A stretch of DNA of 64,000 nt from Octopus vulgaris (Eukaryota): contig OX597826.1 in the NCBI GenBank assembly GCA_951406725.2, forward strand, positions 8,990,001 to 9,054,000, read 5' to 3'. Shown in pieces: positions 2,911 through 12,087 of the stretch (position 1 is its first letter; every line of letters begins with the position of its first letter). The notes under the pieces are model-generated. The model was given only the letters and a program-made list of their open reading frames with translations. It was not told the origin of the DNA and did not search any database. The position numbers and the translations under genes were made by a program.

Positions 2911-3885
2911 TACTTTTTACTTGTTTCAGTCATTATAGATTGCAGCCATACTAAGGCACCATCTCGAAGAATTGTTAGTCAAATGAATTGACTTTAGTTT
3001 TTATTTTTTTTTAAAGTCTGTACACACACTCACACATACTGCTTGCACTTTTCAACGTCAGTGTTTCACTCTTTGACACATGTTCTAGCCATGACCATGC
3101 TCTTTTACTTGTTTCAGTAATTTGACTGTGGCCATGCTAGAGCACTGCCTTTAGTTGAGCAAATCGACTTCAGGACTTATTCTTTGTATGCCTAGTACTT
3201 ATTCTATCGGTGTCTTTTGCCGAACTGCTAAGTTACGGGGATGTAAACACACCAGCATTAGTTGTCAAGCGATGTTGGGGAGTTCAGACACACAAACACA
3301 CACACACACACACACACATATATACATATATATGACAGGCTTCTTTCAGTTTTCATCTTCCAAATCCACTCACAAGGCTTTGGTTGGCCCAAGGCTATAG
3401 TAGAAAACACTTGCCCAAAGTGCCATGCAGTGGGACCGAACTTGCAACCATGTGGTTGGTAAGCAAGCTACTTACCACACAGCCACTCCTGTGCCTATTT
3501 AAATTTTTCAGTGGTTTTTACCAAACCAGACCAAGTAGGAAATAATTTGCAGATGAAAGTTATTTGTTAATTTTATCAGGTAGAGTGACTGTGCTCAGAC
3601 ACTTTCACTTCAATGGGATATTGACATCACTCTCAATCATTTTATTAGTCTCGTTTGTCAATCTGCTAAGTTATAAGGATGTAAATACACCAATACTGGT
3701 TTTCGGTCAGTGATGGTGAACAAACACAAAGACACACACATGTGCATAATCAGTTTCTTTTCTTTTCTTTTGGTTTCCACCTTCCAAATCCACTCACAAG
3801 GTTTTGGTTGACTTGAGGCTATAGTAGAAGATACTTGCTCAGGGTATAGTGGGACTGAGCCTGGAACCATGTAGCTGCAAAACAT
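2911..3885 (-). mobile_element. SINE family B (CORE-like), split by an inserted inverted local duplication
   Basis: Tail TTTTACTTGTTTCAGTCATT at ~2915; body breaks at ~3023 and resumes at ~3640 in register with intact copies such as 12818-13226. Confidence 0.75.
3103..3495 (-). mobile_element. SINE family B, full length, nested
   Basis: Reverse complement of the 12818-13226 copy, from head GGCACAGGAGTGGCTGTGTGGTAAG to tail. Confidence 0.85.
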
Positions 3886-4797
3886 CCACTATTCTATATT
3901 TGCATGAGTCAGATGGAGTTTATTGAGGTAGGTTTTTATGGCCAAATGCCCTTATTGTTGCCAAGCCTCACTTGTTTCTAAGTAAGTTGATATTTCCCCA
4001 TGGCAGACAACGAGGTTCATTCACAATCATCATGTGATGTCAAGACAAGAATACACACACACATACACATAAATGACAGGCTTCTTTCAGTTTCCATTAA
4101 ACAAATCTACTCACAAGGCTTTGGTCAGTTTGGAGTTGTAGTAGCAGACACTTGCAGTAAGACTGTACCTCTGACCATACAGTTGAGAAGCAAATTTCTC
4201 AATCACATAGCCATATTCGTATATACACACACACACACACACACATATATATACACACACACATGATGAGTGAGATCATTAAGCTATTGTTGTATTCTTC
4301 AAAAACTCTGTTATTCTTGTTACTATTTACTTAGTACAAGTTGCTGTATTTATTTAGATATATAATTTTATTAACAAAGATAGTCACTACAGAATATAGC
4401 CAAGTTAGTGTCAATAGAAGTCAGCTTTGAAATACAAACAATTTTCTATTTAATTCTTCAGTCTCTCTGTTCAGTTTCTGTGTATTGTCAGCATTGTCAT
4501 CTTCATCATAAGCAGCAGCAGCCATAGCTTTATTTACGATTTTGCATGACTTGTGGGAAACCTTTACTTTTTTCATTTGCTTTCTTTTTAATACTTATTA
4601 GGTGTTCATTCATGATGGTTAGCTTCATATCAGCCCTGATTAATTAGACCCATGGTCAATGACATTTTATTCCTAGTCACTGTGCTCTCATGACCACAGT
4701 CAGTGATTTCCTTTTCTAAGTTGGTATCATGTGAGTTTGAGGGAGATGTGGTTGCTATTTCTAGCAGACCAAGCAGCCCTGTTGCTAATCTTTTTCA

Positions 4798-5180
4798 TCT
4801 TTTACTTATTTCAGTTATTAGACTGCGGCCATGGTGGGGCACTGCCTTGAAGAATTTTAGTCAGATGAATCGACCCCAGTACTGATTTTCTTTAAAGCCT
4901 GGTACTTATTCTATCAGTCTTTTTTGCTGAACCACCAAGTTAAGGGGACGTGAACTCACTAACACTGGTTGTCAAACAGTGATGGAGGACAAAGAAAGGC
5001 ACAAAGACACACACAGATCTGTATATAATGGACTTTCAGTTTCCATCTACCAAATCCACTCTCAAGGCTTTGGTTGGCTTGAGGCTATAGTAAAAGACGC
5101 TTGCCCAAGGTGCCACACAGTGGGATTAAACCTGGAATCATGTGGTTGGAAAGCAAACTTCTTACCACACAGCCGTTCCT
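4798..5180 (-). mobile_element. SINE family B
   Basis: Same body (CAAATCCACTCTCAAGGCTTTGG...CCCAAGGTGCCACACAGTGGGA) and tail as other copies. Confidence 0.85.
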
Positions 5181-5750
5181 AGCCATAGCTTTTTCACAAT
5201 CTTCCAAGACTAATGGGGACAAAAATATTTATGAAAAGTTAAGATTAATTGAGATTACAGTCATATAAAACTGAAGACATATGGTTCATGAGGCCAAAAA
5301 TACAAACACTACATCAGAAGTAGTGTTGCCCTTAATCATAGGGTCTACTCGATCACCGTTAATCTTGAGTGAAACAATGAAAGAAATATTCTCTCAGTTA
5401 TATTAAGCAATGTAACCAACTTTTATCTTACAACATAGTTCTGTCTATCTAATAATTATCAACTTTCATGACCATCTTAATTTTCAACTTGCATGTCTGT
5501 TTTAATTATCAACTCACATGTCTGCCTTCATTATCAGTTAGCATGTCTGCCTATCAATTTCCATGTATATCTGTCTATGAATCTGCCTAAGCATTTGTCT
5601 TTGTCATTTTTTTAATGGTTTTTAAAGGAAGGAACAGTGCTTATTGCTTATGGCCCTCTCAGGATGTGTGAACCTGGTGAGATTGATACAGCTAATGTTC
5701 AGTTTGAACATCTCTAAGTTGACATCTGAGATGCTGAAGATATCCTTTGA

Positions 5751-6546
5751 AGTAGGTTATGTGTGCATCACTTTCCATAGTTAATCAGGTAGTACAGGGA
5801 GGTGTCATAACCATTTGAACTGGCATTGTGGTCTCATCATCAGCTTCTTACCGGACGGAAGTGAGGAGACTCTAGAAAAAACGCAAATACAGAGAAATCA
5901 AAATCTGAAAGTAACAGGAAAAATTATTGTGCATACTTAGGCATAGGAATGGCTGTGTAGCAAGGAGCTTGCTTCCCAACAACATGGTTCCAGGTTCAGT
6001 CTCACTACATGGCACCTTGGGCAAGTGTTTTCTGCTATAGCCTCGAGCTTGTGAGTGGATTTGGTGGACGAAAACAAAAAGAAGCTCGTCTCTCTCTCTC
6101 TCTCCCTCCCCCTCTTTCTCACTCACACACATAAATACATACCTACATATATATGTATATAGTGAGGACACATAGCCTAGTAGTAAGGGCGTTGCTCTCA
6201 CGATCACAAGATCGTGGTTTCAGTTCCTAGACTGGGTGGTGTGTTGTGTTCTTGAGTGAAACACTTCATCTCATGTTGCTCTGTGATCACTTCAACACCT
6301 GATGCATGGCACACCTTGCACCTGTACAGCACAAGTATGTTAGCTTAAATTTTTTCTAGAGTCTCCTCAGCTCCGTCCGGTAAGAAGCTGATGATGAGAC
6401 CACAATACCAGTCCAAATGGTTATGACACCTCCCTGTACTACCTGATTAACTATGGAAAGTGATGCACACATAACCTACTGTACAGGTGCTAGGTGTGCC
6501 ATGCATCAGGTGTTGAAGTGATCACAGAGCAACATGAGATGAAGTG
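5751..6546. repeat. Two interlocked inverted repeats (5751-5881/6350-6480 and 6262-6329/6479-6546)
   Basis: Direct reverse-complement matches with only a few mismatches. Confidence 0.95.
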
Positions 6547-6873
6547 AGTACATTGTGTAGTGTTAATATGCATGAATATAAACAGATCATTTGTGCAGAT
6601 CATTTGGCAAAAAAGTTAAATACTTACACTTTGTCTTCGACAGGAGAGGCCATCGTGTGTGTGTATGCCTACATGTCTGTATCACTTGACAACTGGTGTT
6701 GGTGTGTTTATGTCCCCTGTAACTTTATTGTTCAGCAAAAGTGACCGATAGAATCAGTACTAGGCTTTAAAAGATTAAAGCTTGGGGTCAGTTTGTTTGA
6801 CTAAAAACCCCTCAAGGTAGTACCCCAGTATGACCACAGTGTAATGACTGAAACAAGTAAAAGATAAAAGATA
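5940..6873 (+). mobile_element. SINE family B with a family C SINE (~6163-6654) nested in its central microsatellite
   Basis: 5' half 5940-6090, 3' half ~6655-6873 ending ACTGAAACAAGTAAAAGATAAAAG; second tRNA-like head at 6163. Confidence 0.75.
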
Positions 6874-6899
6874 CTTGGAAGAGCATTAACGTAAATGAA

Positions 6900-8102
6900 G
6901 TATAATTTGGATTTGTGCCAGGGCAGGAACCACTGATGTTGTCTTTGTAGTAAGACAGTGCTTGAAGAAGTAAATTAATGTTCTTAGCATTTGTTGATCT
7001 GAAGAATTTAAGCTAACATACCTAACACTTGTTGATCTGAAGAAGGCTTTTGGCAAAGTATTATGATCTGTTGTTTGGCAGGTGCTAAGAAAACTGTTGT
7101 TGAATGGCTGGGAAGAGCTGTATAGAGCTGAAATTAGCAAGGTGTGAGTTAGCAAAGAGTTCAGTAACAAATTTAGTATGCAGGTAGGTGTCTGCCAGAG
7201 CTTGGTTCTCAGCTCCCGCCTCTTTATTATAGTTTCCTCAAGGCATAACAGAGATTGTTCATGAGAATTCTTGCATACCAATGAATAATGGTGTAATCTG
7301 TTGGAGAATTACAGAATATATTGCATACATTCGAACAAACTTAGGATTGAAATGTCTTAAAGTCAATCTAGCAAAGAGGAATTTTTGTCGGCAGGAGAGA
7401 AGACAAGATTCTACTGCCATCTGGGAACTGGTCATGCTAAATATGCAGATTAGGACTACAAGTGCTCAAGAATTATAATGGTATCACAGGCAGGCTGACT
7501 GAAGGCTCACTTCTTATCTGGTAGATGCACAAGTGTAAGTTCCCAATTTGAGAATTGATAAGAGCACCTGTAAAATTCTTTCAGATGCTCCGAAAGCTTT
7601 ATAGAGAATGTTTAGGGAGTTACCAGCTTCCTATGAAGTTTCCATTCCTATCAACCAAGATTATTTGATGTTTTTGTGCAAAGCGTAATGTTTAATGGAG
7701 GCAAAACACAGGCCTTGAATTAGAAAATGTGTAAAGGCATGGGAAAAATGAAGGGAGCACATTGTGTAGTGTTAATATGCATGAATAATAGAACATGAAT
7801 GAGGTGAGAAAAATATTGGGTATAAGAGGACTTAGATGCTGTGTGTAAAAGAGAAGCTTGTACTGGTATGGACATAGGATGCATATGGAAGATGACATTA
7901 GGAAAATGATAAGCCATATAATCCAAGTGGAAAGAACCTGCAGAAGAGGAAGATATGGGAAGAAGTGGTGAAAGCTATTCTAAAGATACTGAATTATAAG
8001 AGACAACAAAGGAGTGCAACTGTTAGCAAGATGCTTCAATGGAGAAAACCTGTCCAGTCCATGCAAGCATAGGAAAACAGTTAAAAAGTGAGGGTGATGA
8101 TG
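6900..8102 (+). pseudogene. Degenerate RTE-clade LINE reverse transcriptase and 3' end
   Basis: Broken translation gives FGFVPG..TTD..F.VRQ, VDLKKAF, QVGVCQ..VLS..LF.IV, LKVNLAK and WYGH; ends in a GAT-type tail; many stops and frameshifts. Confidence 0.85.
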
Positions 8103-8405
8103 TTTCTTGATAGTTTTAGTCTCATTATTGATGATTTTTTTCTGTTACAAACTATAGTTTATATAAAATAAACTAGTTTCCGGGAGATGAGGATTTTCTT
8201 GTTTTCAAATACCATTAATGTAATTACACAATGGTTCCATAGGTTTCAAATAGTAGCAAGCCTAATCCAAAACACAGTTTAATACCACTACCTGGCTGTT
8301 TAGCTTTAGCAGGATCCACTCTAATGCAAGGATTTGAACCAAGTTTCCAATTTGAGAATTGATAATTTGATATCTTTGTTTGCATTATTTCATTAAAAAA
8401 AAAAA

Positions 8406-8710
8406 GGTGCATGGTTTAATGTTGAGGGTATTTGGTTCATTTGTGAGTTTAATTCACGGCAGTGTGTTGTCCTTGAGCAAGACACTTTACTTTACATTAT
8501 TCCAGTCCACTCAGCTGGTAAAAATGAGTAGTACCTGTATTTCAAAGGGCCAGTCTTCTCACATCCTGTGTCACTGAATCTCCCTGAGAACTATGTTAAG
8601 GGTACTCATGTCCATGGAGTATTCAGTCACTTGCACGTTAATTTCATGAGCAGACCATTCCATTGATGGAATCAGCTGGAACCCTCGTTGTCATAAGGGA
8701 TGGAGTGCCA
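8406..8710 (+). mobile_element. SINE family C (CORE-like GTGTTGTCCTTGAGCAAGACACTTTA)
   Basis: Homologous to the reverse copy at 53870-54207 and to heads at 25950 and 57512. Confidence 0.75.
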
Positions 8711-11625: not shown

Positions 11626-11665
<40 letters not shown>

Positions 11666-11671
<6 letters not shown>

Positions 11672-11986
11672 CAACAATTGAGGAATGGCCTTAATAGGCC
11701 ATTCGACCCACTAGAAAGAGCAGCCAGGACTCAAACCGCCAAGTAGTAGTAATTGGCTTCTTTACCGATGAGGTGTAGCCTTTGGTAGATTGACTTAATT
11801 TAATTTAATTAAGCTGGTTTGCCATTAAAAACACCAAAACAATGCATTGTCTAAAGACGAATAGGGTAAATGTTTTTTAATTTTCCTTTAATTTCTGAAT
11901 TACTACTACTTGGCGGTTTGAGTCCAGACTGCTCTTTCTAGTGGGTCGAATGGCCTATTAAGGCCATTCCTCAATTGTTGTTGAAT
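11666..11986. mobile_element. Foldback/MITE with 89-bp TIRs embedded in (TA)n
   Basis: 11666-11754 and 11898-11986 match as inverted repeats at 87/89; 143-bp spacer; TA runs on both flanks. Confidence 0.85.
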
Positions 11987-12087
11987 TTATATATATAGTC
12001 TATGGCTATTTTCTCTTTCTCACTAGACTGCTGGTGGCGAAAAAATTTCTATTGAATTTTTTGCTACCCTATATTGATTAATTGATG

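Follow-up and report, generated by a model that had tools for sequence, protein, structure and literature searches.

The 249 bases at positions 6330-6578 of the window (the whole 64,000-nucleotide stretch of Octopus vulgaris DNA analysed here) are a real, inherited multi-template repair scar, of a class already described in human genomes. We consider it probable that this patch was left, putatively as a neutral scar, when a single break or stalled fork in the germline was mended through serial template switching at short microhomologies; it is likely old and harmless, a product of error-prone DNA repair. Copies of four donors, situated 0-1.2 kb away, account for 244 of the 249 bases, and at least two local templates are joined end to end, with no gaps between the four matches. 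The four-piece make-up had been proposed in the initial annotation, and sequence comparison reproduces its coordinates and orientations with the match counts given here:

5751-5881, plus strand: donor D2, old low-copy DNA, overlapped only by weak 75-78% paralogs
6165-6329, plus strand: 5' part of the host short interspersed repeat (SINE-like, a putative label); 39 paralogs scored, 82-87%, of 4919 candidates
6262-6329, plus strand: donor D3, part of the host repeat; its end is exactly the left breakpoint
6322-6329, no strand: CTGTACAG, a palindrome of 8 nt at the left breakpoint, with a second copy at 6479-6486; a variant found in 2/25 paralog sites
6330-6334, no strand: five junction bases to which no donor is assigned
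6335-6351, minus strand: inverted copy of D1, 17/17 against 7005-7021
6350-6480, minus strand: inverted copy of D2, 127/131 against 5751-5881
6479-6546, minus strand: inverted copy of D3, 67/68 against 6262-6329
6539-6578, plus strand: direct copy of D4, 38/40 against 7748-7787, with an exact run of 29 bases at 6550-6578
6579-6655, plus strand: 3' part of the host repeat, which resumes after about 56 lost bases
7005-7021, plus strand: donor D1, within an older 38-nt tandem duplication
7748-7787, plus strand: donor D4, in an old repeat whose paralogs extend across the D4 right end

For the shortest piece, the D1 17-mer, the chance expectation is 4e-6 per 12 kb. Position 6334 is G in organisms B and D, with which the D1 match would become 19 nt; since this G is in register with D1, a reading of the left junction as a 7-nt slip (ACAAGT from 7027-7032) was dropped. 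Adjacent pieces overlap by TT (D1/D2), CT (D2/D3) and 7 of 8 bases (D3/D4; ATGAAG, one mismatch and G). The first two are the microhomologies originally described, while the third had been given as ATGAAG and was slightly short. These overlaps belong to the three inner junctions, where microhomology was measured; the two outer ones depend on the lost bases, for which paralogs are the only guide. Each of the three longer copies (D2, D3 and D4) differs from its own donor, and in D2 three changes are assigned to the copy and one to the donor.

Alignment to paralogs places the point where the host repeat picks up again at ~6577-6579. The replaced host segment has a median length of 56 nt in the 29 paralog rows with both anchors, among 36 listed (two of the 29, L009 and L016, are one and the same place). 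Since the host repeat resumes and a median of 56 nt is missing, the event is a deletion with templated insertion. This refines the original description of a ~250-bp insert built from neighbouring sequence, which holds for the inserted bases but left out the loss of ~56 nt of host repeat. The patch thus includes a switch back onto the initial template, with the host repeat continuing behind it and the donors remaining in place, intact. Inspection of the sequence shows neither a poly(A) tail nor a duplication on the two sides of the insert. Only the SINE-derived D3 piece of the insert has paralogs (87-94%; best 40 of 1217 candidates scored), and the expectation that the whole insert would not recur as a unit is borne out among these best 40 of the 1217 genome-wide candidates. 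On these three counts (no whole-unit repeat among those 40, no tail and no flanking duplication), the patch does not look like a mobile element or retrocopy. The host repeat itself seemingly sits inside a microsatellite at the centre of an older repeat, which it would divide into halves at 5938-6085 and 6681-6873 (paralog at 3101-3497).

The direction of copying follows from the contigs of organism E, in which D2 is unbroken (contigs measuring 839 and 850 nt) and a single contig, covering 6847-7975, holds both D1 and D4. Because D1, D2 and D4 are found in long unbroken E contigs and D3 belongs to the host repeat, these segments are the donors and not the copies. The surroundings of D1, by their motifs a putative LINE-like remnant, match nothing but themselves; the tandem duplication there, at 6969-7044, has its last 16 bases identical and 11 differences in its first 22. 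At the sites listed for E where this organism and the reference donor differ, the copy equals the reference donor at 7 and E at 1, a polarity with P = 0.035 under an origin before the split from E. As the copy sides with the donor of this lineage at 7/8 sites, it likely arose after that split, and the sequence comparison likely places the event in the interval between the separation from organism E and that from B and D. We infer that E lacks the insert. Copy and donors have diverged by 6/249, or 2.4% (0.9-5.2%), a value that falls between the reference distances for dating, 7/1310 for organism B and 57/1124 for organism E. The patch is hence a dated invertebrate example, with an origin between ~5% and ~0.5% divergence.

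Spanning of the junctions, on which the initial annotation had made its reading depend as a safeguard against an assembly chimera, varies along the patch. Support from other organisms comes as assembled contigs, and a junction was counted as bridged under a 31-letter rule. One piece each from organism B (X5, 6300-6480) and organism D (X8, 6300-6508) bridges the D1/D2 junction, with flanks of 50 and at least 129 letters. At D2/D3, the contigs of D (X8) and C (X6, 6372-6508) extend 28 letters beyond the junction, short of the rule; on the left side of the SINE/insert junction, the contigs hold 30-35 letters, near the rule. The two D4 junctions (6539-6546 and 6578/6579) are backed by the reference assembly alone. 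Among the contigs listed, none from organism E (X13, X14) spans any junction of the insert and, in A (X1, 80% read), none holds the insert; these gaps were given no weight as evidence. The insert is therefore seen in parts, D1 and D2 in organism B, and D2 with the start of D3 in C and D. In addition, the donor contig ends at 5780, 30 bases into D2, in both A (X1) and B (X5), a stop that a second copy of D2 would cause. With the D1/D2 junction bridged in B and D and letters that are specific to the copy, the patch is inherited and not an assembly product, the D4 junctions being unbridged. The assembly-only backing of those two junctions is what would speak for an error at the D3/D4 end, and we give this a minute probability: the three longer copies each differ from their donor, which re-use of reads by an assembler would not give, the left three pieces are present in independent contigs of other organisms, and the host repeat resumes cleanly directly after D4.

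How the patch was made can be described conditionally. A free 3' end would prime at 2-8 nt of microhomology, copy 17-131 nt, release and re-prime, and the far side would be rejoined after five jumps (MMBIR/FoSTeS-like). Polymerase theta may start each round, with a more processive polymerase extending, and after the event the copies would have drifted apart by ~2%. Serial microhomology-mediated template switching, as first proposed, is backed by the four pieces, the overlaps of 2, 2 and 7-of-8 bases and the resumed host repeat. The distances of the donors to the break are 0 nt for D3, 426 for D1, 448 for D2 and 1169 nt for D4. Synthesis from the right end would take in D4, next D3 up to the broken end of the template, and after it D2 and D1. 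This is the reading that best explains D3, whose end at the break would then reflect run-off from the broken template within one event. The junctions do not fix the direction of synthesis: imperfect extensions favour minus-strand synthesis at two of them (4/5 and 6/9), the third (7/8) is more in keeping with priming or annealing of the plus strand, and as these point opposite ways, no single direction is best for all. The points joined at the D1/D2 junction (7005 and 5881) are near-equidistant from the two breakpoints, at 426 and 448 nt, a post hoc observation that is possibly chance.

The initial annotation had also named polymerase theta as a possible maker, and this is not established. In published work, theta templates peak within 20 bp of breakpoints and are typically <10 bp (PMC11541566), and repeat use in SD-MMEJ drops to near zero at 30 bp (PMC7407515). 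The patch departs from classical TMEJ/SD-MMEJ on both counts, with pieces of 17, 131, 68 and 40 bp and D3 as the only donor at 20-30 bp or less from the break; with the other three donors 426-1169 nt away, theta alone is the poorer fit. Moreover, templated inverted insertions form in yeast (PMC11724301), an organism without polymerase theta (PMC7615360). The enzyme cannot be read from one set of junctions.

The end of D3 invites a different history. It lies at distance 0 from the left breakpoint, on CTGTACAG, an 8-nt palindrome that is rare in paralogs (2/25) and present on both sides of D1 and D2, and two events could have produced this arrangement. The left end would first have folded onto itself at CTGTACAG and been extended over D3 and D4 before rejoining, giving a spacerless palindrome with 68-bp arms; a staggered cut (8 nt) at the tip of this palindrome would then have been repaired by placing D1 and D2 between two CTGTACAG copies. 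Perfect palindromes are known to be unstable. Nevertheless, we judge this history unlikely, since the two halves show no difference in age (4/148 vs 2/101, Fisher P = 1.0, at low power), the pieces seen in other organisms are D1 and D2 in B and D2 with the start of D3 in C and D, templates near a break are favoured anyway, and run-off at the break reaches the same end point in a single event.

Another route would have both broken ends prime on one plus-strand template, possibly a transcript of the locus with reverse transcriptase, as in twin priming. The left end would make D1, D2 and D3 and the right end D4, and the strands would meet at the 7/8-nt overlap, which is indeed the longest of the overlaps and lies where two new strands would meet. 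The order inverted, inverted, inverted, direct is compatible with a single template strand, but 8/16 random orientation patterns are as well, which leaves the pattern with next to no weight. The whole insert lacks a poly(A) tail and a flanking duplication, host DNA was lost, the order demands a backward jump from D2 to D3, and the other two junctions fit minus-strand synthesis better. It is thus very improbable that both ends primed in this manner, and equally so that the patch preserves, fixed in the germline, an RNA-templated repair from both ends, in which reverse transcriptase would have worked at three sites from the left end, and at the fourth from the right, on a plus-strand transcript. 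Serial template switching at one break or stalled fork remains the reading that we prefer.

The patch had further been proposed to give a transcript an H-type pseudoknot or two long helices, on account of its order A-B-A'-B'. An H-type pseudoknot is defined by this crossing order, and the stems do cross (5751-5881, 6262-6329, 6350-6480, 6479-6546). Of the loops, which have 380, 20 and 0 nt, the last two are too short to span the long stem. A 131-bp helix measures 37 nm, and between the end of D3 (6329/6479) and the two ends of that helix there are 20 bases on one side and 0 on the other; the 20 + 0 loop bases reach at most ~14 nm, which, in this geometric model, sterically excludes the full pseudoknot and would leave at least ~18 bp of the short stem open. 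The crossing order in the proposal stands, whereas both full helices cannot form together. Folding of the plus strand gives -397.6 kcal/mol (z = -17.6 vs 20 shuffles), a strong score that inverted copying trivially produces. The long stem is predicted with 127-130 pairs on either strand and no pairs of the short stem, which appears (67 pairs) only with the long stem blocked and ~120 kcal/mol higher. As the folding program is unable to model pseudoknots, its prediction alone does not exclude one.

Long repeat-made duplexes are where most A-to-I editing occurs in metazoans (PMC5625713), and the long, near-perfect duplex predicted here would be a substrate for ADAR if transcribed; it is therefore plausible, on the predicted fold, that the 131-bp stem is editable. 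One could go further and suppose that the insert was kept for a functional RNA structure, acting as a pseudoknot, as a two-state switch or as a substrate for editing. The fold score, the stem on either strand, the presence of the insert in several organisms and the editing of such duplexes elsewhere would agree with this. Still, we hold it to be highly doubtful, as the score follows from copying, the full pseudoknot is geometrically impossible, all 4 long-stem differences are one-sided, and in organism D the D2 copy is short of 3 nt at 6389. Two older inverted repeat pairs within 2 kb form duplexes nearly as strong (-187 to -219 kcal/mol, vs -240 to -249 for this stem), and 8 inverted pairs of similar kind (at least 100 bp, at least 95% identity, within 3 kb) occur in 1.0 Mb of background, plus one more in the window. 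The stem is unexceptional in this genome. Rfam gave no match better than E = 0.4 in 4500-8500, and nothing useful in 13 background stretches. As for proteins, a Pfam search of 150 of the 277 filtered window frames (547 frames of at least 45 aa) returned two sub-cutoff hits only, a search that short exons would escape, and 60 of the 270 filtered frames from 20 flanking 10-kb stretches yielded transposon-type domains and weak short hits only. Long open frames are found ~80 kb left of the window (L131:9305-10000 and L132:1-720), those of L132 with a reverse transcriptase domain (PF00078, E = 9e-30).

With five jumps among donors within 1.2 kb, the patch is a clean invertebrate case of multi-template repair, and it shows one route by which inverted repeats that are nearly perfect, the starting material of A-to-I editing, can arise without a transposon. 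One locus settles no open question; a narrow literature check found no cephalopod templated insertions, which is no proof of their absence. The need for five jumps sets it apart from work on great apes, which reportedly uses a model of one switch and return. The short-range template switches of great apes (PMC7954356) have in common with the patch that small products became fixed in a lineage and were dated on a phylogeny. The patch fits best among complex germline microhomology-mediated templated insertions (MMBIR/FoSTeS-like). In Osia et al. 2021 (PMC8421209), such MMB-TI events share with it several local templates of mixed orientation, microhomology or microhomeology at junctions and a switch back to the starting template. 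Both are inherited germline variants, and in two people 33/103 and 26/99 events drew on multiple templates, five at most. Templates were sought there within ~100 bp only, whereas three donors here are 426-1169 nt away, and the present case is from an invertebrate, ~2% diverged and shared between organisms.

Theta end joining and SD-MMEJ (PMC11541566, PMC7407515) also combine deletion with insertion, use 2-3 nt of priming and resolving microhomology, and have fold-back and direct templates and a rare palindrome class in common with the patch; their templates typically total <10 bp and lie within 20-30 bp, against 17-131 bp here with only D3 touching the break. Locally templated junction inserts are described for fly somatic cells as well (10.1101/2020.07.20.188979). 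Mitotic MM-BIR, in which theta starts and delta extends (PMC13065848), likewise builds chains of short copies, with a median overlap of 2-3 bp; its pieces are 21-245 bp long, with a median of 77 bp in its most complex molecule. That work concerns human cells in culture, in which breaks at telomeres took up donors from many chromosomes, whereas all donors here are within 1.2 kb. Set beside an H-type RNA pseudoknot, the patch shares the crossing order but has stems of 131 and 68 bp and a loop of 0 bases over the long stem.

To determine how unusual the patch is, we searched 100 stretches, each of 10 kb (30 of them around the window and 70 elsewhere), or 999,900 bases of the 2.8-Gb assembly. Unfiltered, chains of 3-6 pieces were present in 10 stretches and have the coordinates expected of tandem arrays or clustered repeats. 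A filter was then applied that removes any piece occurring a third time locally, and that can also discard real events; after it, no chain of at least 3 pieces was left in the 999,900 bases. The 17 two-piece chains with outside donors that did pass mostly hold repeats present in other stretches, and two that were checked genome-wide are multi-copy elements. A clean four-piece chain is therefore rare here, with an upper 95% bound of ~3 per Mb that still allows many in 2.8 Gb.

Candidates for a nearby hotspot were rejected as repair scars, because the chains in L130 and L123 are multi-copy elements and those in L041 and L061 have matches at other loci, together with a hammerhead-like motif. The L041 (7734-8443) and L061 (4718-6009) layouts consist of three copies, inverted plus direct, with matches in other stretches. 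L130:2957-3681 holds a direct-plus-inverted copy of an element that also forms an array of ~481-bp period on C1, at 64.64-64.65 Mb. The second inverted pair of the window (11655-11997; 100 bp, 97%) starts in a TA microsatellite and resembles an inverted small-element insertion, not a repair scar. In L085, an inverted pair of 255 bp (6341-6595 and 7343-7597), 100% identical and 750 bp apart, spans pieces of repeats and is possibly a very young local inverted copy. Finally, a 25-bp direct repeat in the window (7537-7561 and 8341-8365; 24/25), where organism E has several small gaps at 7538-7552, may be another lineage-specific templated patch.
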